Below, piece by piece: positions 5,496 through 38,080 of a stretch of 38,080 nucleotides of DNA; within the stretch, counting starts at the first letter, position 1; each line of letters opens with the position of its first letter. Position numbers and translations under genes: made by a program. Under the pieces are notes generated by a model that saw only the letters and a list, made by a program, of their open reading frames with translations, searched no databases and was not told where the DNA came from. The DNA comes from a virus, in the IMG/VR virus record IMGVR_UViG_3300045988_140278. One strand, given 5' to 3'.

Positions 5496-8400
5496 CGGTT
5501 CCCTCCTTGGACTATGCCGAGCTTGCGCTTGCTTTCGCGGATGGTCATGGCCGGCGCGTATTTCGCGATGGTCGGGCCGAGGTCGGCGTGCAGTGACTGC
5601 AGGTCGGAGCGCAGGCCGCGTATCTCGGTGATGAGATCCGCGAGGCTGGCGCCGGATCCGGTGGCGAGCGCCGTTGTTCCGATGGCTGCGGCTGTCGTGT
5701 CGATCTGGCTGTTCGTGGTCATGGCGCCGCTGATGCCGGCCATCACGCCGCGGATGGATTTGGCTGCTTCTGGGCTTGCCTTGTCCATGCCTTCGACGAG
5801 GCCTTCGACGATGGCGCGGCCGCGGTGCGGCGTCCATCCGCTTCCCGAGAAGGGGCCTCGCTTGGCTGGCGAGTGCGGGATGAACGAGCTGATGGTATCC
5901 ATGACGCCTTTGATGGCGCTGCCGGCTTTGCTGATCATGCCGGTGATGCCGTCGATAAGGCCTTGGACGATGGCCTTGCCTGCGCTGAGAAGCAGAGTGC
6001 CTGCTCCGGCGAACACGCCTTTGATGGCGCTGATGACGCCTTGCAGTGCGCTGCCGATGCCGCTTGCCGCGTTGGAGAGGATGCTCTTGAACGCGTTCCA
6101 TGCGCCTTGCCAGTCGCCGTTGATCAGTGAGGTGACCATGCTGATGACGCCGGAGACTACGCCGACGACGGCCTGGATGACGCCGCTGATTCCACTGATC
6201 ACGCCTGACACGTATGGGAGCATCGCCTGCACCGCCGGCAGCAGCGAGCCAGTGATGAATCCGATGATCGCGGATACCACGGTTCCCACCACCGAGACGA
6301 TGCCCTGTATCACCGGCATGAGTTGCTGGAGCAGCGCGACTATGCCTGCCACGGCCTGTTGGATTACCGGGATCAGCTGCTGGATTACCGGGCCGATGGC
6401 GGCTGCCATCTGGCCGATGAAGTCCACGATCTGCTGGATGACGGGCATGAGGGCGGCGAGCACCTGTCCGGATATCTGCGTGATCATGCTGATGATCTGC
6501 GCGGCCAATGGCAGCAATGCCGCTATGGCGTCCGTCAATGGCGGCAGCAGGCTCGTCACGATCTGGCTGATTGCCGGCATGAGGCCGGTGAGTCCGTTGA
6601 TGAGCGGCTCGATGATCGTGGGGATCAGCGGCAGCATCGTCTGGATGATGGAGCCAACAACCGGTATCAACTGGCCGATGGCATCGGTGATGACCGGCAT
6701 GATCTGCTTGAGCATGCCCTGGATGCTTTTCACCAACGCGTCGAACGCAGGCTGTATGCTCGCGATCTCGGCCTTGAACCGGGTGAACAGGGCGGAGGCC
6801 TGTTCTCCGAACGCGTCACGCAGTTTCGGCGTGGTGGCGATGAGCGCGCCGATGGCGGCCACGGCGATGCCGATGGGTCCGCCCAATGCGGCCAGCGGTC
6901 CGCTCAATCCTCCCAGGACCCCGCCAAGCAGCGGAATCTTGGACAGCAGCGGCGCTATGCCTCCGGCCCCGAGCGCCACGAATGAGGCTATCAGCGGGGC
7001 GATGGCGTTCCGCACGGGTTTGAACATGTCACCCAATCCGTTGAACACGCTGCCGATGGCGTTGATCGCGTTCTGGAACGGTTTGGGCAGGAGCGTCACC
7101 AGATCGGAGAACAATGCGGGTATCGCCTTCACGACGCCCTTGGCGATCTGGCCCACTCGGGGCAGGATGTTCTTCAGCGCGGCGGCGATGCTTTCGGCGA
7201 GCTGCTGGCTCAACGCACCCATGTCCGCGTTGCTGTTGCCGAGGCCGGCGAGCCAGTTCTGCCATGCGGCCTTCATCGAGTCCACGGATCCCTCGATGGT
7301 GGTCGCTGCCTCCCTGGCGGTGGTGCCGCTGATGCCCATCTCCTTCTGGACTCGGCTGATGGCCTCGACCACGTCGGAGAATGAATCGATGCTCAGGTCG
7401 TTGCCGTCCTTGAGCACGCCGGGCAGCTTGTTCGCATCCGAGATGAGGCGTTCCATCTCGCTCTTGGTGCCGCCGTAGCCGAGCTTGAGATTGTCGAGCA
7501 TGGCGTAGTTGCCGCGGGCGAGCGACTGGTAGGTCTGCTGGATGCTGCCTATGTCGGTGCCCATCTTGTTGGCGTTGTCCGACATGTCGATGATGGCCTG
7601 GTTGCCCATCTCGGCGGCCTTGGCGGTGTCGCCGCCCAGCGAGCTCACGAGGCTTGCCGCAAAGCTCGTGACCTGGTTCATGTAGTCGTTCGCGCCGATG
7701 CCCGCGGTCTTGTACGCTTCGGACGCGTACTTCTGCACCGTGCCGCTGGCATCCTTGAACAGGGTGTCCACGCCACCGACCGCCTGCTCCCACGTGGCGT
7801 AGGCGGCCAGCGCCTGCTTGCCTGTGGCGAGCACGGTGGCTCCGATGGCGGTGATGCCCGCTCCCACTGCGGCGACCGCTCCGGTGGCGAGGCTCTTGAG
7901 GTGCGAGCCGGCGCTGGAGGCGAGGCTCTTGAATGCGTTGCCCGCGCTGGAGGCGAGGTTGCCGAGCGTGCTGCCGATTGCCCCGGCGGCGGTCTGTGCT
8001 CCGGCTGGGAGTTTGGACCATACGGCTCCGGCGGCGGTGGCGATGTTGCCGAAGTAGTTCTTGGCTACGTTGGCAACAGGCGCGAGTTTCTGTCCTACTT
8101 TTCCGGCGACGTTTCCGATGGCGGAGCCGATCTTGCCTCCGAATGAGCGGATGGGTGCGGTCCAGGTGGTGACCGCGTTTTTGATGACGGAGCCGGTTCT
8201 GCTTCCCCAGTCGCGGATTGGTTGTGTCCAGGCGTTGATTGCCGCGCCGATTGGTTTGGCGATGCTTGACACGGTTGTGGCGATGCTGTTGCCCCAGCCT
8301 TTGAGGGTTTGTTGGGCGGCGCTGATGGCTCCCTTGAGTCCGGTTTGGATTTTCGCGCCGACCTGTACGGCGAAGCCGCTGAGTTTAGCCACTGCCGTGC

Positions 8401-21371: not shown

Positions 21372-21640
21372 TGGTTGTCCTTGGTGTTGGTGTGGTCGAG
21401 GTGGTCGAAGTGGTCGAGGATGGTTGCGGCGAGCAGTCCGATGGTGCAGAAGGCGAGGGTGAGTGCCACGTATGCGGCGGGTCCCCAGATGGGTAGGAGC
21501 ACGATCCACCAGCTCCAGTCGGTGATGTTGGCGAGGCGGAGTGCGGTGAAGACGACGCCGAGGAGGTTGATGGAGAGGATGGTTTTGCCGAATGTGGTGA
21601 GGGTGGCGCGTGCGTTGCGGGTGGTGTTGGTGCGTTTCAT
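21368..21640 (-). CDS. Small membrane protein, 90 aa
   Basis: ATG at 21640 overlaps the upstream stop (ATGA). Three hydrophobic segments. Confidence 0.65.
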   Translation of the reverse strand: MKRTNTTRNARATLTTFGKTILSINLLGVVFTALRLANITDWSWWIVLLPIWGPAAYVALTLAFCTIGLLAATILDHFDHLDHTNTKDNQ

Positions 21641-22260
21641 GCGGTGTGGTCCTTGATCTGTCGGCGGATGGTTCGGTATTCGGTGATGTCTCTGGTGAGG
21701 CAGTCGTGGACGCGGTGGGTGCCGTGCTGGTGGTGTTGGTAGGGGTTGTGGCCGAGTGATTGCCATAGGAGGCGCAGGCTGGTCAGGTCGAGGGCCCGGT
21801 AGTGGAGTTGGTTGACGAGGAAGCCGTGGTAGTCGTGTCGTTCGAGCAGGTGGTCGATGGCGGGTAGGTCGAAGTGCTGGACGTTGGTGCCTGCGGGGTG
21901 GAGGGTGAGGCCTTGGTTGGTGGTGAGCCGGTCGATGAAGTCGGCGAGGTGGCCGGCGGTTTCCTGTTCGCTGCTGCCTGCTTGTTCGCAGTCGGCGAGG
22001 AGGCCGTTGGCGGTGTGCATTTTCAGGGCGGGCAGCGCGATCTCGAGGAGCTGGCTGGAGTCGATGTGGATGAAGGTCTCGTAGCGGCCGTATTCGGTGT
22101 TCGTGTCGAGGCTGGTGCAGATGGCTCCGATTTCGAGTATCGAACAGGTGTTCGGGTCGAGGCAGGTGGTTTCCACGTCGAGCCAGAGGAGCGCGGCGGT
22201 GGGGTTCGGTGTGATGGGGTCGCCGCCGACGGTGATGGTGTGCGCGTCGCTTGTGTTCAT
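21637..22260 (-). CDS. DEDDh 3'-5' exonuclease (oligoribonuclease / DnaQ-like), 207 aa
   Basis: LWLDVETTCLD (ExoI), HFDLPAI (ExoII-like) and HRVHDCLTRDI (H-x4-D, ExoIII). Confidence 0.75.
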   Translation of the reverse strand: MNTSDAHTITVGGDPITPNPTAALLWLDVETTCLDPNTCSILEIGAICTSLDTNTEYGRYETFIHIDSSQLLEIALPALKMHTANGLLADCEQAGSSEQETAGHLADFIDRLTTNQGLTLHPAGTNVQHFDLPAIDHLLERHDYHGFLVNQLHYRALDLTSLRLLWQSLGHNPYQHHQHGTHRVHDCLTRDITEYRTIRRQIKDHTA

Positions 22261-29163: not shown

Positions 29164-29523
29164 ATGAGTGCATTCACGAAATGGATTGAGGAGATCTCCG
29201 GCGGCAATATGAGCAACCGAGAGCTCGCCAAAAAGGTCGGCATGACCGTCGCCACATTTCATCGCAAATGGACGGAAGACGCCTTTGTCTCGGATGATGC
29301 GATCACAATCGCACGAGCCTTCGGCCGTTCGCCAATCGAAGCTCTCGTAATCCTTGGCTCACTGACCGAGGAAGAGGCCAGCAAAGCCGCAAGGGGCTAC
29401 TCGCTATCCGAGTACACGACCTTGGAGCTCAGCCAGGAACTCTTGCGGAGAATTCAAGCAAGCGCCGAAGTCCCTGATTATCTCGACAAACCGGTCGATG
29501 AGGCCGCAAAGAAAATTCTGTAG
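29164..29523 (+). CDS. CI-like repressor (HTH), 119 aa
   Basis: AGGAGG 6 nt upstream. NRELAKKVGMTVATFHRKW HTH. Divergent from the Cro-like gene. Confidence 0.75.
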   Translation: MSAFTKWIEEISGGNMSNRELAKKVGMTVATFHRKWTEDAFVSDDAITIARAFGRSPIEALVILGSLTEEEASKAARGYSLSEYTTLELSQELLRRIQASAEVPDYLDKPVDEAAKKIL

Positions 29524-29628: not shown

Positions 29629-30830
29629 GCGCCCCGGATTCAACTTGTAAGTGCAACGGCTGGTTTCGGGTCGGCTTGTTTTGATTGTAGCTTGGCCATC
29701 TCCTCGTCCCATACCTCGTTGGGCGTTTTGTATCCGAGGAGTTTCATGGGGGTGTCGTTGATCTCCCCGACGATCGCGTCGAGCTCGTCCTGCGTGAGAT
29801 CCTCGAAACTGGTTCCCTTGGGCAGATAGCGGCGGATCCTGCCGTTCCTGTTCTCGTTGCTGCCGCGCTGCCAGGAGCTGTACGGGTCGGCGAAGTACGT
29901 GAGCATGCCCAGCGCCTCGTCCACCAGCACGTGCAGGGACGCCTCCGTGCCGTTGTCCCACGTGCGGTCGACGCGCGCGGCCGGCGGCATGCCCTTGAAT
30001 ATCTCGTACTCGGCCCTGGCCGTGGCGGACGCGCTCTTGTCGTCGACGAGCCGGGCGAACAGCCTGCGGCTCCTGCGCTCCACCTGCGTGTTCATGCAGC
30101 GCCTCGACGGCGCGGCGCCGACCACCGTGTCCGACTCGAAATGGCCGAACCCCTTCCTGGATCCGACCGCCTCGGGCCGGTCCGCGATGGGCACGCGCAT
30201 CGGGATGCGCGGCCCTTTCGCCTTCCTGCCCTTTTTCCTCGTCCGGCGTTTCCTGCCGCGCGCCAGATACTGGCGCAGGTCCAGCGCCCGCTGCGGCTTG
30301 GCGTAGATCCACTGGTAAAGGCACTCGTGGCTGATCCGCATCGACGGGTCGCCGGCGCACTGGGCCTTCAACCGTCCCTCGATCAGTTCCGGGCTCCACC
30401 CCCTGCGCAGCGCGTCCAGCACCCAGGCGCGCAACGGGCCCGAGTCCATGCGACGCGGCTTGCGGGATCCGCGCCGGCGCAGGTCCGCCTTCCTCTGCGC
30501 GGCCAGCGCCGAATAGAACGGACCCGAGGTCCACGGCCCGGTCTTCAGCCGTTTCGGCCGGTAGGGGCGGTACGACCCGTTCTCGTTGGACGCGAACCAC
30601 AGGCCGCGCCTCAGCTCGCGGCTCACCGTGGACTTGTCCCGGCCGATCCTCTCCGCGGTCCGCCGAATGCTCAGATGCTGTTCGCAATGCAGCTTCTCGA
30701 TCAGGATCCTCTCCTCGGACGACAGGTGCGAATACTGTTGACCCATGAGTGCGACACCTTCTTAAGTTAGAAACTTCGAACACTTCCAACCCTAGACAAG
30801 GTGTTGCACTTCTATTTAGAACCCGGGCGC
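29629..30830 (-). mobile_element. IS30-family insertion sequence (~1.2 kb)
   Basis: Single DDE transposase flanked by imperfect terminal inverted repeats. Left: GCGCCCCGGATTCAACTTGTAAGTGCAAC (29629-29657). Right, reverse complement: GCGCCCGGGTTCTAAATAGAAGTGCAAC (30830-30803). Exact ends and the target duplication are not resolved. Confidence 0.75.
29640..30746 (-). CDS. IS30-family DDE transposase, 368 aa
   Basis: N-terminal HTH (...SIRRTAERIGRDKSTVSRELRRG...). GHFESDTV...TWDNGTE...SWQRGSNENRNGRIRRYLPKGT is characteristic of IS30 transposases. Confidence 0.9.
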   Translation of the reverse strand: MGQQYSHLSSEERILIEKLHCEQHLSIRRTAERIGRDKSTVSRELRRGLWFASNENGSYRPYRPKRLKTGPWTSGPFYSALAAQRKADLRRRGSRKPRRMDSGPLRAWVLDALRRGWSPELIEGRLKAQCAGDPSMRISHECLYQWIYAKPQRALDLRQYLARGRKRRTRKKGRKAKGPRIPMRVPIADRPEAVGSRKGFGHFESDTVVGAAPSRRCMNTQVERRSRRLFARLVDDKSASATARAEYEIFKGMPPAARVDRTWDNGTEASLHVLVDEALGMLTYFADPYSSWQRGSNENRNGRIRRYLPKGTSFEDLTQDELDAIVGEINDTPMKLLGYKTPNEVWDEEMAKLQSKQADPKPAVALTS

Positions 30831-30854
30831 CGGGGCTTGATTATGTTGTTTGGC

Positions 30855-32711
30855 CTATCGTATGAGTGCGGTAGCTGTTCGTAATCCGCCTTGGGTTCCG
30901 ATTTCGATTTTCGACATGGCTCCGTTATCTGTAATCAGGTCGAGGCATGCCGCATTGTCCGTCAGGTCCAGTGTCCCGATCTGCTTTCGGCCGATTTTGA
31001 CCTGCACGCCCAGCATGCCGTCGACAACAGTCTTCCGCAGGAGCGCCCATAGCAGCGTGCCGTCTTCGTATTGATCCAGCGTCTCGCTGGCATTGTCGTT
31101 CAGTTTGATCGGAGTGCGTTTGGGGCCGGTGATGTCTTTCTTGTGGGGCATTTTGTTTGCGGTTCCCCATGTGGACATGTTTGTCTCCGCGTCTTCTCCT
31201 GCGGCTCTTGCCTTCTGAGATGTCAGAGCCCCCTGCTGAGTCTGAGATGCCATTGGGGATTTGTTTTGCGTCATCAGGCGGGATTCGGCGAGCGCCGTCT
31301 TGTATTCCTCCGAAGGGGTCTCAGCCTCCGGCATTTCCACGCGGACGTCGAGTTTAACGGCTGCGGTTTTCCCTGATTTGGTGTGGGCGAGCGCGACGCC
31401 GCCGATCTTGGGGACTTGGTGGTAGTGGCGTGAGGTGTTGGTGGGCGTCATCCATCCGATTTGTTCGCCGTCGAGGGTGACGAGGATGGTGGGTTCTCCC
31501 ATGTGGGTGCCTTTCGGGTTTTCTCCTCGTTGGAGTTCGACCCAGAACCATGCGCCGGCTCCGTACTCATTGAGTTTGTCCTGGTGTTCTTCTTCGCCTA
31601 CGATTTCGACGCCGCCTTTGGAGGGTATGACGATTCCATAGGGTTTTTCATTGCGCAGTTCGATTCCGGCGTTGGCCATGTGGCGGCTGCGGAATACCGT
31701 CTGGGTTTTCTGCCGCTTCTGGCGCAAGGTGATCTGCTCGTCATCGTCACTGACTTGTTGGGGTGCCGTGATGGCTTTGAGTCTCTTGTAGCATTCCAGG
31801 GTGTCTTTGGCATCGGCGAGCGCTCGGTGTTCCTCGGTTTTGTTGATGCCGGTGCGTCGCATGACGTCTTGGAGGGTGTGGCTGGTGGCAGTCGGGTATT
31901 TCTCCCGACTGAGATCCGCAGTGTCGAAGGTCTCGTTGCCGAGGTTGGGAAGTCCGGCGTCTTGGAATGCCTGGTTGAGGAATCCGATGTCGAATTGGAT
32001 GTTGTGGCCGAGTATGGGCAGGTCGCCGATTCGGCGGCGTAGCTCGTGTATGACATCGACGATTCTCGGTTGTTCTTTGAGCATGTCATCGTCGACACCG
32101 GTCAAATTGGTTATTTCAGGCGGTATCAGAATGCCGGGATTGATAAGTTGTGAGTATTCGCCAATCGATTCGTCGTTTTTGACGTACACGATTCCGATAT
32201 CGATAATGCCGCATGTCTTCGGACTGAAGCCAGTGGTCTCGAGATCGAGAACGATGTAATCGGCATCAGGGTGGTCACCGCTTTCGTTACGGATGTGGTC
32301 GTCTGAGCTTTTCTCGGCATGGAAACCTGCGGCACCGGCCACGAACGGTTCCTCAGGAAGGTCAACAGCCGAGGCAGTGGAGTCTAGAATCGTTCGCGCA
32401 TCAGCTTGCCCTGTGATGCCAGCTATGCTTCCCTCGGTCTTTTCGGTCGCGGTTTTGGCTTGCTTTCTCTTGAATTCTTCCGGGTCTTTGATCATGTCAC
32501 CTATGATCCAGAGCACCAATCCCACGAAAGCCAGTGCCACCGCCACGATTATCCCGAATATGAGCCCCAAAAGGTTTACCTTGAATCCGGCAACCACGAA
32601 CAACAACGCGAACAGCCAGGCTATGGCGGCGAGCGCTCGGAACGCAATCATGCCAATGATTCTTGGTAGGGACGTTTTCTTCTTCGCCGTATGCTGTCCG
32701 TTTGGCATCAT
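30855..32711 (-). CDS. Membrane-anchored DEDDh (DnaQ-like) exonuclease with a duplicated C-terminal domain, 618 aa; candidate superinfection-exclusion / defence moron
   Basis: Two N-terminal TM helices (IIGMIAFRALAAIAWLFALLFVVAGF and LLGLIFGIIVAVALAFVGLVLWIIG). ExoI VLDLETTG, ExoII GHNIQFDIGFL, ExoIII HRALADA. Two related ~90-aa C-terminal modules. Visibly lower GC than the structural genes. Located between repressor and integrase. No convincing RBS at the annotated start. Confidence 0.8.
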   Translation of the reverse strand: MMPNGQHTAKKKTSLPRIIGMIAFRALAAIAWLFALLFVVAGFKVNLLGLIFGIIVAVALAFVGLVLWIIGDMIKDPEEFKRKQAKTATEKTEGSIAGITGQADARTILDSTASAVDLPEEPFVAGAAGFHAEKSSDDHIRNESGDHPDADYIVLDLETTGFSPKTCGIIDIGIVYVKNDESIGEYSQLINPGILIPPEITNLTGVDDDMLKEQPRIVDVIHELRRRIGDLPILGHNIQFDIGFLNQAFQDAGLPNLGNETFDTADLSREKYPTATSHTLQDVMRRTGINKTEEHRALADAKDTLECYKRLKAITAPQQVSDDDEQITLRQKRQKTQTVFRSRHMANAGIELRNEKPYGIVIPSKGGVEIVGEEEHQDKLNEYGAGAWFWVELQRGENPKGTHMGEPTILVTLDGEQIGWMTPTNTSRHYHQVPKIGGVALAHTKSGKTAAVKLDVRVEMPEAETPSEEYKTALAESRLMTQNKSPMASQTQQGALTSQKARAAGEDAETNMSTWGTANKMPHKKDITGPKRTPIKLNDNASETLDQYEDGTLLWALLRKTVVDGMLGVQVKIGRKQIGTLDLTDNAACLDLITDNGAMSKIEIGTQGGLRTATALIR

Positions 32712-32796
32712 GCCCCAATCTATCGTTTTGCAGCCGTCTCATTGCGGCCCTACGTAGATTTTACAGATGGTTGCGGTCGTGTCGATTGTTTCTGAT

Positions 32797-32825
32797 TTGA
32801 CATACTTGCATAATTGAGGTATATT
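32797..32825 (+). promoter_or_regulatory. Near-consensus sigma-70-type promoter
   Basis: TTGACA (32797-32802), exactly 17 nt, TATATT (32820-32825). About 40 nt upstream of a GAAAGGAGG RBS and the ATG at 32865. Confidence 0.65.
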
Positions 32826-32864
32826 AGTTATGTCAGCAAAACAGAACAGTGAAAGGAGGTGAAC

Positions 32865-33014
32865 ATGGACGAGGTCTGGAAAGCGATCGAAGCCATCGGC
32901 TCCCTGCTTGTCGGGATTGCGGCCGTCATCGCCGCGCTCAAGTCCAACGGCAGCGAGCCATCGCCCAAGCCGAAGCCAAAACCGCCACGCAGGCGGCGCA
33001 GGCCACGCAGGTAG
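32865..33014 (+). CDS. 49-aa peptide: one TM helix plus a poly-basic tail
   Basis: MDEVWKAIEAIGSLLVGIAAVIAALKSNGSEPSPKPKPKPPRRRRRPRR. Strong RBS (GAAAGGAGG, 5 nt spacing). Too short for the ORF track. Confidence 0.55.
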   Translation: MDEVWKAIEAIGSLLVGIAAVIAALKSNGSEPSPKPKPKPPRRRRRPRR

Positions 33015-33443: not shown

Positions 33444-33494
33444 AAAGCCCCCCGACACTCATTGTGAGCGCCGGGGGCTTTCGTTTGTTTCGTT
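33444..33494. terminator. Bidirectional intrinsic terminator between the plus-strand operon and the integrase gene
   Basis: AAAGCCCCC (33444-33452) pairs with GGGGGCTTT (33473-33481), followed by CGTTTGTTTCGTTT. An A-run precedes it, serving the opposite strand. Confidence 0.7.
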
Positions 33495-34771
33495 TATGAG
33501 GCTTCCTCAATGACCTCGGCTTCGATGATGTCGGCGTCGTCGTGGAGGTCGGGTATGGCCTGACCGAGGAGTTTGGCGAGGCTGGCTTCGTCTCTGTGGG
33601 TGTAGTGGTTGGTCATCGTGATGCTGGTGTGGCCCATGATGGCGGTGCGTGCGTCGTCGGGCATGTTGGCGCGGGCCGTCATGCTGGCGGTCCAGTGGCG
33701 TGCGCTGTGGATGGTGACCGGTGGAAGGCCCGCGGCCTTCAGAGCCTTGTTCCAGTTGTAGCGTTCGGTGCTGCTGCGTATCGGGTTGCCGCGCGAGTTG
33801 GTGAATATGAGCTGGCGCGGGCCGATGCCGAGTCGTTTGACGCGCGCCCACAATCGCTGCCACAGGCTCGTGGATATGGGCACGAACCGGTGCGCGGCGC
33901 GGGTCTTGGGCGTGGTGAGCCACAGGATGCCGTACAGGTGCTCGGCTTTGAGCCAGGCGGGTATGACGGCTTGTTCCGGCCTGCCGTATTGCTGGATCTG
34001 CTGCTGTACGTTGATGCCGGGCACGCCGTCGCGTTGTTCGAGCTCGTAGGGCATGAGCGCGTAGCGTTCGCCTTCCCTCATGCCGGCCGCGAACGCGAGT
34101 TCGAACAGCAGCATCCAGGATTCATCGACGTCCACGGTCAGGGCCGGTCCGCGTCGTTTCGCTCCCCGGTTGGGCACGGCCTCGATCAGCTGCTTCGGCT
34201 GGTCTGGCGAGAGGATCCTGGTCTCGGTGGGCTCCACCCTTGGCGGCTTGACCCTGCGGCACGGATCCACGGGGATGAGCTCCTCGAGCTCGGCCTGGTC
34301 GAGCATCATCTTCAGGCTCACGAAATGGTCCTTGAGCGTGGAGGGCGCGAGCCGTTTGGAAAGCACGCGCATGCATTGGCGGATATGGTCAGGGGTCAGC
34401 TCGGTGAGGCGGATACAGCCGATGACCTCCATGCACGCATGGATCCTGCCGGCGCGGGTGCGGTACGTGGTGGGCTTGACGTTGAGCCGGTATTCCTCCA
34501 GCCACCGCTCCGCGTAATCCTTCAGGTACGGGCTCTTGGCGCCGGGCAGCAGGCCGGTGCGTTCCATCTCGGCGACCTTCGCGTCGAACCGTTCGCGGGC
34601 ATCGGCCTTCGTCCGGCCGGTCGCCGCTATGAACCGCCGCTTGCCGGTCGCGGGGTCCCGGCTGATCTCGCGGCGGAACTCCCATCGTCCATCCGCGCGG
34701 TGGATGATGCTGCCCGCGCCCTTCGTGCGCCGCGACCGTCCGCCCGTCTTCCGTGAGGTCTTCGCCGTCAT
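33494..34771 (-). CDS. int: Tyrosine integrase, 425 aa
   Basis: Arm-binding-type N-terminus (GSIIHRADGRWEFRREI...), SAM-like core, and a catalytic region ...MREGERYAL...IHSARHWTAS...MGHTSITMTNHYTH. ATG at 34771 with AGGAGA upstream. Confidence 0.9.
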   Translation of the reverse strand: MTAKTSRKTGGRSRRTKGAGSIIHRADGRWEFRREISRDPATGKRRFIAATGRTKADARERFDAKVAEMERTGLLPGAKSPYLKDYAERWLEEYRLNVKPTTYRTRAGRIHACMEVIGCIRLTELTPDHIRQCMRVLSKRLAPSTLKDHFVSLKMMLDQAELEELIPVDPCRRVKPPRVEPTETRILSPDQPKQLIEAVPNRGAKRRGPALTVDVDESWMLLFELAFAAGMREGERYALMPYELEQRDGVPGINVQQQIQQYGRPEQAVIPAWLKAEHLYGILWLTTPKTRAAHRFVPISTSLWQRLWARVKRLGIGPRQLIFTNSRGNPIRSSTERYNWNKALKAAGLPPVTIHSARHWTASMTARANMPDDARTAIMGHTSITMTNHYTHRDEASLAKLLGQAIPDLHDDADIIEAEVIEEAS

Positions 34772-34859
34772 GGTGTTCTCCTTGTGTCCGAGAGCACTCA
34801 ATGAGCGTCCACGCACATGGCGAGAACCGTTGCGGCGAGTGTCCTCCGGTGTTTCCGAA

Positions 34860-35115
34860 GTGCACTCTATTTACACTCTATCGCCGCGTAAAACGGCGGA
34901 ATACGTGCGTAAAACGGCGGTTTTCCGTAAATCGAAAAACGGCGTGATTCCAACGTTCCGACACTCCGGACCCCTTGGAATCACGCCGTTTTGCAGGGTC
35001 TAAAGACCCTACTTGGAAACATTGAACCTGAATGTGTTCGTATTTTTCGTTTCCCTGTGTTTTCAAGGGTTTCAGCGTCTCGCCTTTTGTGCGTACACAC
35101 TATTGACACTCTATT
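34860..35115. other. Putative attP (un-recombined): arm-type repeats flanking an 18-bp inverted repeat
   Basis: (A/G)CAC(T/A)CTAT occurs at 34862, 34873, 35095 and 35106, as pairs 11 bp apart. GTAAAACGGCGG occurs at 34888 and 34909. The perfect 18-bp inverted repeat AAAACGGCGTGATTCCAA (34936-34953) pairs with 34975-34992. Non-coding and lower GC. Lies between int and the lysis cassette. Confidence 0.55.
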
Positions 35116-35145
35116 TTCTTGTGTTGATTCAATTGTATACAAGAA

Positions 35146-35209
35146 AACGCCCCGCCCGGCAAGCAGAGCGGCTCATGTAGAGCCGTCTGCGATGCCTGAG
35201 CGGGGCGTT
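35146..35209 (-). terminator. Structured terminator after the lysis cassette
   Basis: AACGCCCCGC (35146-35155) pairs with GCGGGGCGTT (35200-35209) around a nested hairpin. On the minus strand it is followed by TTTTCTTGT. Confidence 0.5.
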
Positions 35210-35215
35210 CGGTTT

Positions 35216-35317
35216 TCAGGGCATGCCTTGGTCGTCGGCGAGCGCCGCATACAGTTCGAGTGCGAGTACGGCTGCGATCAGGCCCGCGCATTCGACGAGC
35301 CATTGGATGCGGTTCAT
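35216..35317 (-). CDS. 33-aa hydrophobic peptide coupled to the endolysin gene
   Basis: ATG at 35317 overlaps the lysin stop (ATGA). MNRIQWLVECAGLIAAVLALELYAALADDQGMP. Confidence 0.4.
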   Translation of the reverse strand: MNRIQWLVECAGLIAAVLALELYAALADDQGMP

Positions 35318-36027
35318 ACGCCGAGCTGTTCCATGGTCTTGCGCACGAGCGCGTCGATCTGGTCGAAGCGGCTCCACCATGGGGCGCCGTTGTTGCCGTG
35401 GATCAATGGCACGCCTGCCTGCTGGAGCAGGTTGGCCTGGTCGGGGTGTGTGAGCGCGGTGCGCCCCTTGCCGGGCTCGCAGTACCAGATGACTCCCGTG
35501 GAGTCGTTGCGGATCATCATTGCCGCCATGATATCTACCTCCTGTGTTCCGGTGTTGCCGGATAGCTTCTGTTGGACGAGTTGGACGAAGGCTCCCCAGT
35601 TGTAGCCGAAGCGCGTGAAGTACGGGATGGGGTCCGTATGGTCGGATCCGCCGTAGGTCTGGCTGAACCATTGGTGCGGGTGCATGCGGTCGACGCCCCA
35701 CCAGTGCGCGCGGAGGCGCTGGGCTATCACGTCGGCTGCGATGTCGATGCCGCGCCAGAAGTCCGACGCGTTGGTGGCCTCGCAGATCTCGATGCCCTCG
35801 CACGTGCCGTTGCCGTTGCCGACCTGCCAGCACAGCCGGTCGTAGGGCACGCAATGAATCGCCTCGGTCCAGTCGGACGTGAGGTGCACCGCGTAGTCGT
35901 AGCCTCGCGACCACAGGTCCCGGTGGTTGCGGGCCGTGGCGCCGGGATTCGCCGTGCTGTGGACGGCGAACAGGGACGGATTGAGGTAGCCGTGCCCTGC
36001 GTTGACGATCTCCTCCTTGATCTGCAC
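35314..36027 (-). CDS. Endolysin, N-acetylmuramoyl-L-alanine amidase (Amidase_2/PGRP-like) with C-terminal binding domain, 237 aa
   Basis: ...AVHSTANPGATARNHRDLW...AVHLTSDW...CWQVGNGNGTCEGIEICE... GTG start at 36027. Follows the holin. Confidence 0.85.
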   Translation of the reverse strand: MQIKEEIVNAGHGYLNPSLFAVHSTANPGATARNHRDLWSRGYDYAVHLTSDWTEAIHCVPYDRLCWQVGNGNGTCEGIEICEATNASDFWRGIDIAADVIAQRLRAHWWGVDRMHPHQWFSQTYGGSDHTDPIPYFTRFGYNWGAFVQLVQQKLSGNTGTQEVDIMAAMMIRNDSTGVIWYCEPGKGRTALTHPDQANLLQQAGVPLIHGNNGAPWWSRFDQIDALVRKTMEQLGV

Positions 36028-36033
36028 TATTAG

Positions 36034-36423
36034 TCACTCCGTGGTGGTCTTGGCGTCCGGGTCGGAGATCATCTCGCTCATGGGCACGACCTCGCCCGGC
36101 ATATCCACCGCATTGCCAGTGGACTGGGCGAGCTTGACGGCGTTGACGACCTGCTGGCCCTGCACGGCCGCGGAGGTCACGTTGTTGTTGCGCCACCACG
36201 CGTACACGGATGCGATGACGGCGATGACGCCGGTGATCGCCGTGCTCACCTGGTCCGAGGTGAACGGCAGCTGGCTGATGCCAGCGATGGACAGGCCGGT
36301 CTGGACGACGCTGAACAGCTGGACGAGCAGCAGCACGATGGATTTCGTGCGCTCCACGGTCAGACCTGGAATCGTGGTGGTGTTGGCGGCCTTGTGGTCG
36401 GCCACGCCTTTGGTGTTTGCCAT
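36034..36423 (-). CDS. Holin, 129 aa
   Basis: Two TM segments (SIVLLLVQLFSVVQTGLSIAGI and AITGVIAVIASVYAWW) and a charged C-terminus. Immediately upstream of the amidase. Confidence 0.8.
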   Translation of the reverse strand: MANTKGVADHKAANTTTIPGLTVERTKSIVLLLVQLFSVVQTGLSIAGISQLPFTSDQVSTAITGVIAVIASVYAWWRNNNVTSAAVQGQQVVNAVKLAQSTGNAVDMPGEVVPMSEMISDPDAKTTTE

Positions 36424-36435
36424 TGGTGTTCCTTT

Positions 36436-36792
36436 CTATTGGTGGTGGTTTCCTCCGCGCCGGAGGTCGTTGACCTCGTGGCGCAGTTCGATGAGGTTCT
36501 GCTCGGTAGTGGTGATGCGACGATTGACGGTCGCGAACTCGCCGTTCATGTCGTCACGCAGACCGTCGACCGCGCCGCGCAATGATTCGATGGCGTCCAA
36601 TGTGCGCAGGGCCTTGTCGTCGAGGTCGTCGCGCAACGGCATCTCATGGTTGTTCGTTATCTCGCCGCGCGTCGCCCGATCCCTCTCGTCCCCTCTGTGG
36701 TTGATCCAGATGGCGGTGACGATCTGGGCGGCGAGCACCAGGGCGCTCACCACGATGTACGCCCATGCGGGCAATCCCTCGGGCAGGTTCAT
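36436..36792 (-). CDS. N-terminal TM plus coiled-coil protein, 118 aa (lysis-cassette associated)
   Basis: ATG with AGGAG 6 nt upstream. AWAYIVVSALVLAAQIVTAIWI TM segment. Confidence 0.7.
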   Translation of the reverse strand: MNLPEGLPAWAYIVVSALVLAAQIVTAIWINHRGDERDRATRGEITNNHEMPLRDDLDDKALRTLDAIESLRGAVDGLRDDMNGEFATVNRRITTTEQNLIELRHEVNDLRRGGNHHQ

Positions 36793-36812
36793 GCACGGCT
36801 CCTACGGTATGG

Positions 36813-36862
36813 AAAACCCACACGCAGATCCGCATGGAACGGCCATGCTGCGTGTGGGTTTT
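36813..36862. terminator. 15-bp perfect-stem hairpin with T-tracts on both strands, between the lysis cassette and the recombinase gene
   Basis: AAAACCCACACGCAG (36813-36827) pairs with CTGCGTGTGGGTTTT (36848-36862) around a 20-nt loop. Confidence 0.55.
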
Positions 36863-36873
36863 GGAGGTATGAA

Positions 36874-37737
36874 ATGTTGCTGAATGAGTATTGGGACGAG
36901 TCGTATTGGCCGTCATGTGGCAGGCTGCGCGAATGCACGCGCGTCGGATATGCGAGTGCATGGCGACGTCACATACGACCCGAATTGGGTGACATGGACC
37001 TGGCTGACCTGACAGGGCCGCGTATCCAATCGTGGCTGGACTCGATCACGTCGGCCGGAGCGGCGCGTAAGGCGTGGGCCGTATTGCGGCAGATGCTGCG
37101 TTCGGCGGTGCGGCTCGGATTACTGGATGCGGACGTGACCGGCAGGGTCACGCCACCGAAACCGAGCGGTTATGAACCGGAGGTTTTGGATATCCGCCAG
37201 ATACGCCAGTTGCTGCAGGGTTTCCACGGGCATGAGCTCGAGGCATGGCTGATCTGCAGCGTATGCCTCGGATTGCGCACCGAAGAAGCCCTCGGATTGG
37301 AATGGCAGGATCTGAACCTCAACACCGGCAAGGTCAGGGTCCAGCGCGGCCTGCAATGGGTGGACGGGCACGAGGTAATCGTAGATCCAAAAACCGAGTT
37401 GAGCCGTCGCACCATCGTGCTGCCGCGATTCGCGGTACTTCGACTCCGTGAAATCAGGCCACGAGACGGTGGCCGACTCATCGGCTCGTTGAATCCCGGC
37501 CAGGTCGCTCGTCGCTACGCCACATGGTGCAGATCGCAGAACCTGCCGTATGTGCCGAGACGGAACCTGCGCCATAGCTGGGCGTCCACCGCGTTAGGCG
37601 CCGGCGTAGATGTGGCGGTGGTCAGTCGAGCACTCGGCCACTCCAGCATCGCTACAACAGCCCGCTACTACCTGCGCCCAGACAGTGAAGTACTCCGCGA
37701 AGCGCAACGCACATGGGAGCACGCCCTCATACGTTGA
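36874..37737 (+). CDS. Small tyrosine recombinase (shufflon invertase, Rin/Rci-like role), 287 aa
   Basis: GGAGG 6 nt upstream of the ATG at 36874. No arm-binding N-domain. ...CLGLRTEEALGL..., NLRHSWASTAL, LGHSSIATTARYY (R...H-x-x-R...Y). Its stop lies 2 nt before a crossover site. The ORF-track start at 36646 is an upstream extension. Confidence 0.85.
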   Translation: MLLNEYWDESYWPSCGRLRECTRVGYASAWRRHIRPELGDMDLADLTGPRIQSWLDSITSAGAARKAWAVLRQMLRSAVRLGLLDADVTGRVTPPKPSGYEPEVLDIRQIRQLLQGFHGHELEAWLICSVCLGLRTEEALGLEWQDLNLNTGKVRVQRGLQWVDGHEVIVDPKTELSRRTIVLPRFAVLRLREIRPRDGGRLIGSLNPGQVARRYATWCRSQNLPYVPRRNLRHSWASTALGAGVDVAVVSRALGHSSIATTARYYLRPDSEVLREAQRTWEHALIR

Positions 37738-37739
37738 TA

Positions 37740-37754
37740 GGGATTCGCTAACCC
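37740..37754 (+). other. Shufflon crossover site, copy 2
   Basis: GGGATTCGCTAACCC. With its 4 preceding nt, GATAGGGATTCGCTAACCC is shared with copy 3. Confidence 0.8.
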
Positions 37755-38026
37755 CGCTGCATCTCTACACTGGCAGTGGCGTCTATAAGGATGCCGGTAG
37801 CGGCGGCTACGCGACCCTGTGGACGTTCGGCCAGTTCAAAACCCAGTTCGGCCGCGACTGGAACAATGACGTGGTCGTTGCCGCCATCAACGGTGACTGG
37901 GACGCGAACGGCCGTCAGGTCACCTCTGTGCGTGTCAGCCCGTCCGGAAACCGCATCGATGTCATGTTCGACGGTAAAAACACGGCACCTATCCGCGTCA
38001 ACTGGGCCGTCATGTGGCGCGGATAG
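37741..38026 (+). other. Promoterless alternative C-terminal cassette for the receptor-binding protein (DSLT + 90 aa)
   Basis: It is in phase with the site, as in the expressed gene: DSLTPLHLYTGSGVYKDAGSGGYATLWTFGQFKTQFGRDWNNDVVVAAINGDWDANGRQVTSVRVSPSGNRIDVMFDGKNTAPIRVNWAVMWRG, stop at 38024-38026. No RBS or start at the site. The upstream part of ORF-track entry 37610-38026 overlaps the recombinase gene out of frame. Confidence 0.75.
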
Positions 38027-38080
38027 GGATTCGCTAACCCAATCGTCTGTATCGTTTACTGGCCCCTACGCGATGAATGT
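38026..38080 (+). repeat. Crossover site copy 3 (38026-38040) plus the first 40 nt of a further cassette; right copy of the 55-bp terminal inverted repeat
   Basis: Exact reverse complement of 1-55. Reads DSLTQSSVSFTGPYAMN in the cassette phase. Confidence 0.95.

Follow-up and report, generated by a model that had tools for sequence, protein, structure and literature searches.

A membrane-anchored DEDDh exonuclease with HIRAN-derived modules, a candidate barrier to incoming DNA carried by a Bifidobacterium prophage

Introduction

A Bifidobacterium prophage carries a gene whose product, judged from its sequence, predicted structure and genomic position, is a good candidate for breaking down foreign DNA as it arrives at the membrane. 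The gene is complete and lies on the minus strand at 30855..32711 of the window, by which we mean the whole 38,080-nucleotide stretch of viral DNA analysed here (IMG/VR record IMGVR_UViG_3300045988_140278). In the ORF list it runs from an ATG start to a stop codon at 30855-30857 and encodes a protein of 618 aa, which begins with a two-helix membrane hairpin, continues through a disordered linker into a DnaQ/PolC-type DEDDh exonuclease and ends in two HIRAN-like modules. An earlier note on this DNA had described the same three parts, i.e., transmembrane (TM) helices, exonuclease and two C-terminal modules, and its reading of the architecture was correct. The strings it quoted were located at residues 156-161 (DLETTG), 235-241 (GHNIQFD) and 295-301 (HRALADA) in the exonuclease, and at 374-394 (EEHQDKL...VELQ), 409-421 (ILVTLDGEQIGWM), 541-560 (ASETLDQ...LLRK) and 569-581 (VQVKIGRKQIGTL) in the modules.

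An identical protein (P0001) is present on other contigs, and full-length homologues share 30-63% identity with it. The TM-exonuclease-module architecture is undescribed: literature searches on HIRAN/exonuclease/prophage defence, on DEDDh with transmembrane, and on HIRAN with transmembrane and anti-phage found no description of a TM-exonuclease-HIRAN protein.

Results

Membrane hairpin and tether

The hairpin comprises residues 18-71 (32499..32660, minus strand) and is predicted from hydropathy, AlphaFold2 helices and the distribution of K/R residues. Hydropathy reaches 1.6-2.9 over residues 15-76 (Kyte-Doolittle, 19-residue windows) and the AlphaFold2 model places helices at 15-44 and 48-75, which bears out the two N-terminal TM helices claimed previously. 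Uncharged runs cover residues 26-43 and 45-71. Five K/R residues precede the TM helices, a single K lies between them and a K/R-rich stretch follows; relatives show a similar pattern, with a K/R-rich N-tail and post-TM2 segment separated by a short neutral or acidic loop. From this predicted topology we infer that the anchor is N-in/C-in and that the remainder of the protein faces the cytoplasm.

The hairpin evolves independently of the other domains: it is 67% identical to that of P0007, versus 39-42% elsewhere in the protein. It is followed by a low-confidence tether, residues 72-150 (32262..32498, minus strand), which is probably disordered (pLDDT <50 for 83-146), poorly conserved and variable in length. 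The anchor is not universal among relatives, being absent from the P0005, P0009/P0126, L012 and L043 homologues, therefore tethering is not essential to the core activity of the family.

Exonuclease domain

Residues 151-320 (31752..32261, minus strand) form a DnaQ/PolC-type DEDDh 3'-5' exonuclease domain, identified by Pfam, PADLOC, NCBIfam and Foldseek. Pfam RNase_T (PF00929) spans residues 153-307 (E=4.5e-29; 102.5 bits against a gathering cut-off of 24), the PADLOC DEDDh profile matches at E=2.8e-35, and the NCBIfam PolC, DinG and DEDD exonuclease models match at ~1e-39, over the exonuclease domain only. The domain also matches phrog_192 (E=2.6e-45). Every catalytic residue is in place, i.e., the Exo I D-x-E, the Exo II D and the Exo III H-x4-D, and D156, E158, D241, H295 and D300 are invariant in an alignment of eight family members; the complete DnaQ-type core reported earlier was thus borne out. 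In the AlphaFold2 model the domain has an RNase H-like exonuclease fold with pLDDT ~80-96, and its best Foldseek match in the PDB is the DnaQ domain of Cas2-DnaQ (8h2f; E=8e-15, TMt 0.88, rmsd 1.8 A), alongside S. aureus DinG and Pol III epsilon.

DEDDh enzymes are able to act on RNA too. Here the profiles and structures that match best belong to DNA exonucleases (PolC, DinG, Pol III epsilon, 8h2f), which points to a putative active nuclease of the DNA type. A helical connector, residues 321-349 (31665..31751, minus strand; AlphaFold2 helix 322-346), leads from this domain to the modules. The separate exonuclease that had been noticed elsewhere in the phage, at 21637-22260, does match RNase_T, though weakly (E=2.7e-6).

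Two C-terminal modules

Module 1 comprises residues 350-466 (31314..31664, minus strand), supported by AlphaFold2, hhalign and a Foldseek search of BFVD; its motifs are GEExHQ..L..YG..W.W and G.PT...LDGE.IG. Among the closer full-length relatives (P0003, P0004, P0006) module 1 is the most conserved stretch of the protein, at 78-85% identity compared with 61-75% for the exonuclease domain. An inter-module linker, residues 467-519 (31155..31313, minus strand), begins as a helix and continues as a disordered stretch (pLDDT <50 for 483-515). Module 2, residues 520-618 (30858..31154, minus strand), was identified by hhalign as a degenerate copy from which, in this protein, the GEExHQ motif has disappeared; module 2 of P0008 retains HQDKL..Y.DGAWVW.

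The tandem duplication is real, and it is family profiles that show it. Module 1 and module 2 profiles aligned at 98.3% (hhalign, E=2e-14, 89 columns), module 2 aligned with the broad module profile at 99.4% (E=3e-21), and a module-1 HMM matched two stretches in full-length relatives. From the 618-aa sequence alone, self-BLASTP gave nothing and a Smith-Waterman comparison was not significant (score 31, z=1.1, reached by 273/2000 shuffles). The duplication proposed in the earlier note therefore stands at the level of the family and not of the single sequence, and the modules are ~100-117 aa long rather than ~90 aa.

Relation of the modules to HIRAN

At profile level the module is homologous to canonical HIRAN domains. 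The broad module profile aligned with canonical HIRAN, represented by the Pfam-positive HIRAN regions of partner proteins, at 98.1% (hhalign, E=1.2e-13, 102 columns), while reversed and shuffled controls gave 0.2% or less. The narrow module-1 profile reached 70% (E=4e-5), and module 2 alone only 3%. The exonuclease dominated Foldseek searches of the full-length model, therefore the module was modelled alone: module 1 gave pLDDT 88.5 and pTM 0.81 with the topology b-a-b-b-b-a-b-b. In BFVD this model matched gp33 of phage E6 (E=2.8e-5, TMq 0.75) and a predicted phage HIRAN protein (E=4e-4, TMq 0.61). In the PDB, solved HLTF HIRAN chains were top-ranked but not significant (E ~0.2, TM 0.32-0.38), and a PDB sequence-profile search with module 1 returned chance-level matches only (E>=0.12). 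Pfam at E<=10 found no family, HIRAN (PF08797) included, for module 1, module 2 or the modules of two relatives.

Profile alignment sets the module consensus G-K-x-x-G-x-P-T-I opposite the HIRAN consensus E-P-x-N-x-h-D-x-N-A-V, and the 3'-OH pocket motif N-x-x-D-x-N-A (the D94/N90-type residues of HLTF) was not found in the module in this alignment. Because the N..D..NA pocket motif is replaced by G(K)..G.PT, end binding by the modules is an analogy only. The earlier suggestion of HIRAN-type domains thus holds as profile homology and in the resemblance to predicted phage HIRAN models; it fails on the Pfam model, the pocket motif and the significance of the PDB matches.

Classification of the modules as bona fide HIRAN domains was considered and rejected on the Pfam model and the pocket motif. 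It may also be observed that a module binding 3' ends and a 3'-5' exonuclease would be rivals for one terminus.

Module family and phage E6 gp33

A word-indexed homologue search with the module profile returned one fragment and missed the known family, and an exhaustive HMM search was used instead. This recovered 193 cluster representatives among 1.84 billion proteins. Members are often membrane-anchored, in the arrangements TM-HIRAN-module, module-TM-Excalibur and TM-exo-module; the first two are anchored independently of the protein studied here, with the module on the predicted cytoplasmic side. A tblastn search with the module region, P0194 and P0163 found no match in 50,697 GenBank phage records.

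One member is gp33 of Propionibacterium freudenreichii phage E6 (AOT24562.1, 'DNA binding domain protein'), which pairs a TM hairpin with a C-terminal copy of the module (HMM E=1e-11). Unlike the 618-aa protein, it contains a canonical HIRAN domain (Pfam E=2e-10) and no exonuclease domain. Its gene is leftward-transcribed cargo on the repressor strand of a temperate actinophage immunity region, and is absent from the related phage B22.

Genomic context

In the window, the gene is flanked by an integrase (33494-34816, minus strand) and a 119-aa HTH repressor-like gene (29164-29523, plus strand). An IS30-type element (29634-30826) separates the gene from the repressor here, an insertion that is missing from the same prophage found elsewhere (L023/L024, 99.7-99.9% identical). 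Upstream, a consensus scan found a promoter-like site, TCGACA-16-TAAAAT (32758..32785, minus strand), a consensus match only at 10/12 positions, which ends 46 nt before the ATG. Downstream, a GC-rich palindrome at 30822..30834 (no strand assigned), a hairpin of the CCCGGCGCCGGG type and a possible terminator, starts 21 nt past the stop codon, with the IS30 element a few bases further on. No tRNA was found at the prophage end, and the sole result of a megablast search with 18 kb of the window was a match in the holin, at 85%, to Bifidobacterium phage Bbif-1.

As had been noticed, the gene is AT-richer than its surroundings, with a GC content of 0.553 against 0.617 for the window. Its GC3 is 0.66, compared with 0.78-0.88 for the phage core genes and integrase, and the adjoining genes for repressor-like and cro-like proteins are just as AT-rich (GC3 0.64 and 0.72). 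The atypical composition speaks for the function proposed below, but low GC is common to the immunity genes and is therefore not specific evidence of foreign origin.

Wherever an integrase was found in a prophage or island locus (the window, L001-L006, L009, L012/L029 and L023/L024), it was a tyrosine integrase at a distance of 1.6-4.1 kb from the gene or its homologue, and homologues adjoin repressor or ImmA genes in L005, L007, L012 and L043. Prophages with 63-95% identical integrases hold other cargo in this slot, including PD-Lambda-1 (E=3e-103), AbiD (E=3e-37) with a Panacea antitoxin, DUF3800 with an RNA ligase/kinase, a TM-HIRAN protein and a soluble exonuclease-module homologue. ShosA (E=1e-58; ShosTA) lies beside the L005 homologue and RhuM/PDC-S05 beside that of L009. 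The slot is thus a variable, integrase- or repressor-proximal defence hotspot, and what had been called a moron slot holds validated defence genes in related prophages.

In L012 the homologue belongs to a rep-ImmA-exo operon, its start overlapping the stop of ImmA by 4 nt, and in L043 the homologue lies 48 nt downstream of the repressor in the same orientation. Together with the promoter-like site, these placements make lysogenic expression plausible. In the B. thermophilum/boum/apri/thermacidophilum group, a soluble version with the exonuclease and one module is encoded on the chromosome in a syntenic position next to the dcw cluster, between MATE/Dtd and FtsQ-MurC-MurG, with no integrase nearby; this fits a housekeeping DNA-processing ancestry.

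Discussion

Proposed function

Taken together, the domain content, predicted topology and gene neighbourhood suggest, with roughly even chances of being right, that the 618-aa protein is a lysogen-expressed, cytoplasm-facing nuclease that attacks incoming linear DNA, carried as accessory cargo of a temperate Bifidobacterium phage for superinfection exclusion or anti-phage defence. We infer a DNA rather than RNA substrate, end binding by the modules and an anti-phage phenotype. The two-helix hairpin would fix the protein to the cytoplasmic membrane so that its N- and C-termini both lie inside the cell, and the flexible tether of ~75 residues would let the DEDDh 3'-5' exonuclease sweep the inner membrane face, while the two HIRAN-derived, putatively beta-barrel modules would capture or position DNA termini or junctions. 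Linear DNA crossing the membrane, e.g., a superinfecting phage genome with free ends, would have its 3' ends or cohesive overhangs trimmed, and the trimmed DNA, unable to circularise, would then be lost. The resident prophage would be safe because it is integrated, and after induction its ends would be made only during packaging. The Bifidobacterium prophage paper (PMC6109161) does not give the polarity of the cos overhangs, therefore 3' cohesive ends are a presumed target.

Alternative explanations

The chromosomal gene raises the question of whether the protein is a host-type DNA-processing or repair exonuclease, acting in end processing during recombination, in excision/integration or in replication, either for the phage's own benefit or as a neutral passenger, and with no role in exclusion. 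The synteny of the soluble, one-module orthologue in several Bifidobacterium species would suit such a role, as would the work of canonical HIRAN in replication-fork repair (HLTF; 4s0n, 4xzg) and the frequency with which phages carry DnaQ-like exonucleases of the phrog_192 type. However, the replication module, to which the gene does not belong, is already supplied with a DEDD-like exonuclease, SSB and ParB-like genes of its own, and the gene is absent from the slot in most prophages with near-identical integrases, where defence genes are found instead. Two relatives are placed with repressor or ImmA genes, and a membrane anchor is hard to square with replication or repair, so that we consider this explanation unlikely.

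The hotspot itself is equally the context of abortive infection, with the Abi and toxin-antitoxin neighbours AbiD, ShosTA and Panacea. As a toxic effector, the nuclease would be held inactive by the HIRAN-like modules until they sensed free DNA ends or replication intermediates of an infecting phage, whereupon host and phage DNA would be degraded indiscriminately, and the cell would die and the clone be protected. Module 1 is more conserved than the nuclease domain, as expected of a regulatory or sensing domain, and HIRAN proteins of Actinobacteria, which form pairs with HipA-type toxins, have been suggested to serve as antitoxin or sensor partners (PMC11706625). We nevertheless think this quite unlikely, as no conserved partner antitoxin or immunity gene adjoins the gene in the loci examined, a lone 3'-5' exonuclease is a poor killer of a circular chromosome, and membrane tethering suits local action better than global degradation.

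The same anatomy that favours defence against phages would also serve a barrier to other DNA, in which single-stranded DNA from natural transformation or conjugation is degraded at the membrane, guarding the prophage-bearing genome from plasmids, ICEs and homologous replacement that deletes the prophage. A 3'-5' ssDNA exonuclease stationed near the membrane would be well suited to ssDNA that comes in through a membrane channel, and DNA uptake in Gram-positive transformation runs 3' to 5'. However, we know of no established natural competence in bifidobacteria, and the alternative cargos nearby are anti-phage systems, which makes this role improbable. A reversed, N-out/C-out topology, which would make the protein an exported or surface enzyme whose exonuclease and modules meet extracellular DNA, or phage DNA still outside the membrane, is barely credible: some module-bearing proteins do carry an extracellular Excalibur domain, but in these the module is N-terminal to the TM segment with Excalibur on the opposite side. 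The 618-aa protein lacks a signal peptide and its tails are predicted from the K/R distribution to be cytoplasmic, and DEDDh enzymes are cytoplasmic and Mg2+-dependent.

Significance

To our knowledge, interactions between bifidobacteria and their phages have been characterised in very few cases, and the immunity encoded by prophages shapes strain persistence in the gut. If incoming DNA is indeed degraded at the membrane, this would be a mechanistically new form of superinfection exclusion in which anchor, nuclease and end-recognition modules share a single polypeptide. It would also assign a role to a HIRAN-derived domain family of ~190 protein clusters that had no annotation before, and explain the recurrence of membrane-anchored HIRAN proteins in actinobacterial phage lysogeny modules, including that of the cultivable P. 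freudenreichii phage E6. A membrane-proximal exonuclease could furthermore reduce the efficiency of DNA uptake, which matters for the engineering and transformation of bifidobacteria.

A broader and more tentative proposal, which we regard as possible though somewhat doubtful, is that proteins with the HIRAN-derived module form a class of their own, so far unrecognised: membrane-anchored DNA-end sensors and effectors that actinobacterial temperate phages carry in their lysogeny modules, among them TM-exo-module and TM-HIRAN-module proteins and E6 gp33. In Bifidobacterium this would be a one-polypeptide 'injection-site nuclease', poised at the inner membrane face, that seizes the leading end of an injected phage genome and trims it ahead of circularisation, amounting to a new superinfection-exclusion mechanism and a new single-gene defence.

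Comparison with known systems

In its predicted model the module has the same order of six strands and two helices as HIRAN (PF08797; HLTF, PDB 4s0n/4xzg/6kcs), often occurs in tandem with canonical HIRAN inside one protein, and has in common with it the opening motif V-(V/I)-G-E-x-x-(Y/H)-Q and the strand (V/I)-G-(Y/x)-L. It differs in its own conserved W-x-W and Y-G motifs and in the replacement of E-P-x-N-x-x-D-x-N-A by G-(K)-x-x-G-x-P-T.

The exonuclease shares its fold and all catalytic residues with other DnaQ/PolC-type DEDDh enzymes (Pol III epsilon, the PolC exonuclease, the S. aureus DinG exonuclease and Cas2-DEDDh). These are without a membrane anchor or HIRAN-like modules, and the 618-aa protein, for its part, has no polymerase, helicase, GIY-YIG or Cas2 partner domain. 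The PADLOC candidate PDC-S48, a single-gene DEDDh defence candidate, matches the exonuclease domain at E=2e-28, but only over profile positions 5-174 of 411 and 9-195 of 512, the rest being without a counterpart, and no PADLOC match was found for the TM or module parts. Membership of PDC-S48 was rejected on the grounds that the match is restricted to the exonuclease domain; PDC-S48 had no mention in the literature searched. That PADLOC matches only this domain supports the earlier judgement that the protein is not a named system.

Actinobacterial DEDD diDNases adjoin HIRAN/HipA genes on mobile elements (prophages, islands) near defence genes (PMC11706625). Those enzymes are NrnC-like, dinucleotide-specific and encoded by separate genes, whereas the 618-aa protein has a DnaQ/PolC-like DEDDh domain fused to HIRAN-like modules and a TM anchor.

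With the lactococcal Sie2009, Ltp of S. thermophilus, P22 SieA, T4 Imm and Zorya, all membrane-located, prophage- or host-encoded and acting on DNA entry, the likeness is a functional analogy only, and like the membrane superinfection-exclusion proteins of temperate phages the 618-aa protein is encoded near lysogeny genes. Classical Sie proteins, which are small, lack a catalytic domain, and Zorya is a multi-gene motor-plus-nuclease system. By comparison, the protein described here appears to hold an anchor, a nuclease and putative DNA-binding modules in one polypeptide.

Gene structure and prophage context

The exonuclease gene (30855-32711, minus strand) is an open reading frame with an ATG start, and the peptide strings that an earlier note had quoted from its 618-aa product were all found where that note had placed them. 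An identical protein (P0001) is encoded by other metagenomic contigs. In a window of 61.7% G+C, the GC3 of the gene is 0.66, as against 0.78-0.88 for the integrase, IS and phage core genes; the repressor-like and cro-like genes have similarly low GC3. A predicted promoter-like site (TCGACA-16-TAAAAT) lies upstream, its end 46 nt from the ATG, and a GC-rich hairpin lies downstream of the stop codon. The sole match of the window to a sequenced phage was the holin of Bifidobacterium phage Bbif-1 (85%); the module region also occurs, at 99% identity, in Bifidobacterium imperatoris Tam1G.

Read along the minus strand, the integrase (33494-34816, minus) is followed by two small ORFs on the opposite strand, i.e., a xis-like ORF and a 51-aa TM peptide, then by the exonuclease gene, an IS30-type transposase gene (29640-30746, minus; HTH_38; GC3 0.88), a 119-aa HTH repressor-like gene (29164-29523, opposite strand to the exonuclease gene), a 74-aa cro-like gene and the early genes. 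The IS30-type element (29634-30826) separates the exonuclease and repressor-like genes; it starts 28 nt past the exonuclease stop codon and the ORF is therefore intact. Two further contigs (L023 and L024; 99.7-99.9% identical) carry this prophage without the IS, and on them ~130 nt lie between the end of the exonuclease gene and the convergent repressor gene. The two alignment blocks flanking the element overlap by 5 nt, which may represent a target-site duplication.

The 51-aa ORF (32859-33014), a 49-aa gene call in L023 and L024, encodes one hydrophobic helix with a Pro/Lys/Arg-rich tail and is not conserved beside exonuclease homologues elsewhere. Upstream of it, within 32797-33014 (plus strand), is a near-consensus promoter-like site (TTGACA-17-TATATT, 11/12), divergent from that of the exonuclease gene. 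Prophage homology to L023 extends as far as ~35032, the probable end of the prophage; the matching point on L023 is the 3' end of a YchF-like gene. The remainder (~35032-38080) holds a second tyrosine integrase (36646-37737, plus; Pfam E=3.9e-14) along with an ORF of 327 aa that matches no Pfam family, and may be a second element integrated in tandem.

Exonuclease domain and membrane anchor

Residues 151-320 form a DEDDh exonuclease domain (Pfam RNase_T E=4.5e-29; PADLOC DEDDh 2.8e-35; phrog_192 2.6e-45), with the exonuclease portions of PolC, DinG and DEDD-GIY-YIG proteins as top NCBIfam matches, and D156, E158, D241, H295 and D300 are invariant in the family alignment. The closest structure in Foldseek was 8h2f (E=8e-15, TMt 0.88), a DnaQ domain from the Cas2 fusion of S. 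thermophilus, and Pol III epsilon and the DinG exonuclease of S. aureus were also close; given these neighbours, the predicted substrate is more likely to be DNA than RNA. The earlier note had also read a second exonuclease at 21637-22260 (minus). This 207-aa ORF of the replication module, which resembles phage core genes (GC3 0.86), does carry a DEDD exonuclease signature, although a weak one (RNase_T E=2.7e-6; Rv2179c-like E=2e-3).

The N-terminus comprises two strongly hydrophobic helices (residues ~18-71, Kyte-Doolittle up to 2.9), modelled by AF2 as helices 15-44 and 48-75. A lone lysine lies between them, with five K/R in the preceding tail and a K/R-rich segment after, a pattern also found in the hairpin-bearing relatives. 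Positively charged residues flanking membrane helices tend to remain inside, and from this rule we infer that the N and C termini are both cytoplasmic. Residues ~83-146 have pLDDT <50 and are poorly conserved, which marks them as a putative flexible tether. Identity to the homologue P0007 is 67% over the hairpin (residues 1-76), 42% over the exonuclease and 39% over module 1, whereas three closer homologues (P0003, P0004 and P0006) show the opposite, with 28-35% over the TM region and 61-85% elsewhere. These opposing patterns indicate that the anchor has been exchanged, or is evolving, independently of the rest of the protein.

The C-terminal modules

The tandem duplication described in the earlier note was not significant from the protein itself: self-BLASTP gave no match, and a Smith-Waterman score of 31 (z=1.1) was reached by 273 of 2000 shuffles. 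Profiles built on eight relatives, full-length or nearly so (30-63% identity), did establish it; one of the eight, from B. tibiigranuli, carries no annotation beyond '3'-5' exonuclease'. Module 1 (residues 350-466) matched module 2 (520-618) with 98.3% probability (E=2e-14, 89 columns), and a broad module profile matched module 2 at 99.4% (E=3e-21). The GEExHQ motif is gone from module 2 of this protein; module 2 of the homologue P0008 retains HQDKLNSYPDGAWVW...VTLDGEFIAEL. Module 1 is the best-conserved part in comparisons with P0003, P0004 and P0006 (78-85% identity; the nuclease domain has 61-75% and module 2 has 35-78%).

The module had no Pfam match up to E=10 and no relative in a PDB sequence search. 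When 1.84 billion cluster representatives were searched exhaustively with an HMM, 193 proteins contained it (E<=1e-3), and a Pfam scan covering 119 of these identified canonical HIRAN in 54, RNase_T exonuclease in 32, and Excalibur, DUF2510 or BRCT in a few. Proteins of ~270-310 aa have a hydrophobic helix at the start, canonical HIRAN at ~85-165 and the module directly after (~165-275); further architectures are module-TM-Excalibur, TM-exo-module, TMx2-module and soluble exo-module. Scored simply by hydropathy, 57 of 151 module-bearing proteins have a TM-like segment.

A profile of 132 modules matched a profile of 42 canonical HIRAN regions, taken from module-bearing proteins that also hold canonical HIRAN, with 98.1% probability (E=1.2e-13, 102 columns); reversed and column-shuffled controls gave <=0.2%. 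Module 1 alone gave a confident model (pLDDT 88.5, pTM 0.81) with the topology b-a-b-b-b-a-b-b. HLTF HIRAN chains ranked top in the PDB, not significantly (E~0.2, TM 0.32-0.38), and among predicted viral structures the model matched a 'DNA binding domain protein' of P. freudenreichii phage E6 (E=2.8e-5, TMq 0.75) as well as one annotated 'HIRAN domain containing protein' (E=4e-4, TMq 0.61). Profile homology and these viral matches together argue that the module is a divergent HIRAN derivative. The HIRAN guess of the earlier note thus stands as homology but not as 3'-end binding, which, judging from the profile alignment, cannot be transferred: HIRAN has an 'EP.N..D.NA' segment, which forms the 3'-OH pocket of HLTF (4s0n), while the module has 'GK..G.PTI' there instead.

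In phage E6, gp33 (532 aa; L038 5102-6700, minus, equal to KX620753 24101-25699) combines a TM hairpin, canonical HIRAN (Pfam E=2e-10) and the module (E=1e-11). Its gene, on the same strand as the repressor within the immunity region, is absent from the related phage B22; it is accompanied by an HTH gene in an apparent duplicated immunity cassette. Phage E6 is a cultivable system in which module function could be addressed.

Genomic neighbourhoods of the relatives

Integrases 63-95% identical to that of the window occur on 11 viral contigs, none of which carries the 618-aa gene. Six with enough flank were examined, and in the five that were annotated (all but L045) the slot contains PD-Lambda-1 (E=3e-103) with an ImmA-like gene (L044); AbiD (E=3e-37) with a protein bearing a Panacea antitoxin domain (L048); DUF3800 together with a phosphoesterase and a kinase/RNA-ligase protein (L039); a TM and canonical-HIRAN protein adjoining ImmA and repressor (L046); and a soluble exo-module homologue that is co-oriented with the repressor and lies 48 nt downstream of it (L043). 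This slot is a hotspot for defence genes. The L046 protein (3134-4021, minus; 295 aa; integrase 68% identical to the window's) has an N-terminal TM helix, canonical HIRAN (Pfam E=3e-8) and weak PADLOC matches to PDC-M03B, and lacks both the exonuclease domain and the module.

At every locus with enough flank, the distance between the two-module gene and a tyrosine integrase is 1.6-4.1 kb. On L005 and L006 the order is integrase, ShosA (PADLOC E=1e-58), PRTase and exonuclease, convergent with an HTH_3 repressor followed by early genes; on L007 the exonuclease adjoins a 166-aa ORF, an M78 ImmA-like gene and an HTH_3 repressor; L009 has RhuM (PDC-S05), exonuclease, a second RNase_T gene, PBECR4 and integrase. 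In B. tibiigranuli (L001-L004) the exonuclease belongs, with an integrase and two unknown genes, to a small island that has host genes alongside. In B. biavatii (L012 and L029) the order is repressor, ImmA, a 511-aa exonuclease with two modules and no TM, and integrase, the ImmA and exonuclease ORFs overlapping by 4 nt.

The soluble one-module version is syntenic in B. thermophilum, B. boum, B. apri and B. thermacidophilum, between MATE/Dtd and FtsQ-MurC-MurG and without a nearby integrase. It has the look of a host gene inherited vertically, and is possibly the ancestral form. It encodes 363-410 aa at about 7250-8360 in each of L015, L016, L018, L019 and L020; in B. thermophilum JCM 1207 (L016) a frameshift or a genuine split leaves two ORFs, one for the exonuclease (255 aa) and one for the module (112 aa). 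B. biavatii has a second exonuclease gene, soluble and with one module (L012 12087-13310, plus; 407 aa), located some 2 kb past the integrase belonging to the prophage with the two-module version, so host-type and phage-type copies are side by side.

Discussion

We consider it an even chance that the protein is a prophage-encoded barrier trimming the ends of linear DNA that enters through the membrane. This reading is the best fit to several features combined: a predicted DNA-type 3'-5' exonuclease with intact catalytic residues, strongly constrained HIRAN-derived modules, a recurrent and predicted cytoplasm-facing anchor across the module family, a variable integrase/repressor-proximal slot otherwise home to validated defence genes, and repressor-operon placement in two relatives. 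Incoming ends would be trimmed at the membrane, and we infer that the resident prophage would be spared, being integrated and making its own ends only inside capsids.

The main weaknesses of the barrier reading are the loss of the canonical HIRAN end-binding pocket from the module, the missing anchor in some relatives and the existence of a soluble chromosomal version. Among the alternatives, the company of defence genes in the slot would also suit an abortive-infection effector, and the chromosomal version would suit a DNA-processing enzyme of host type that serves the phage carrying it. A barrier against plasmids or transformation would share the predicted anchor and DNA substrate, and an extracellular nuclease is an alternative that the predicted cytoplasmic termini do not favour.

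The literature searched contains no description of a TM-DEDDh-HIRAN-like protein or of the module; its nearest theme is NrnC-like DEDD diDNases associated with separate HIRAN/HipA genes in actinobacterial mobile elements (PMC11706625). PADLOC, PHROGs, NCBIfam and Pfam recognise the exonuclease domain alone, and the candidate system PDC-S48 matches the protein over that domain only. Nuclease-based prophage defences and HIRAN-nuclease combinations are already known kinds; the TM-DEDDh-HIRAN-like architecture and the domain subfamily of the module are new.
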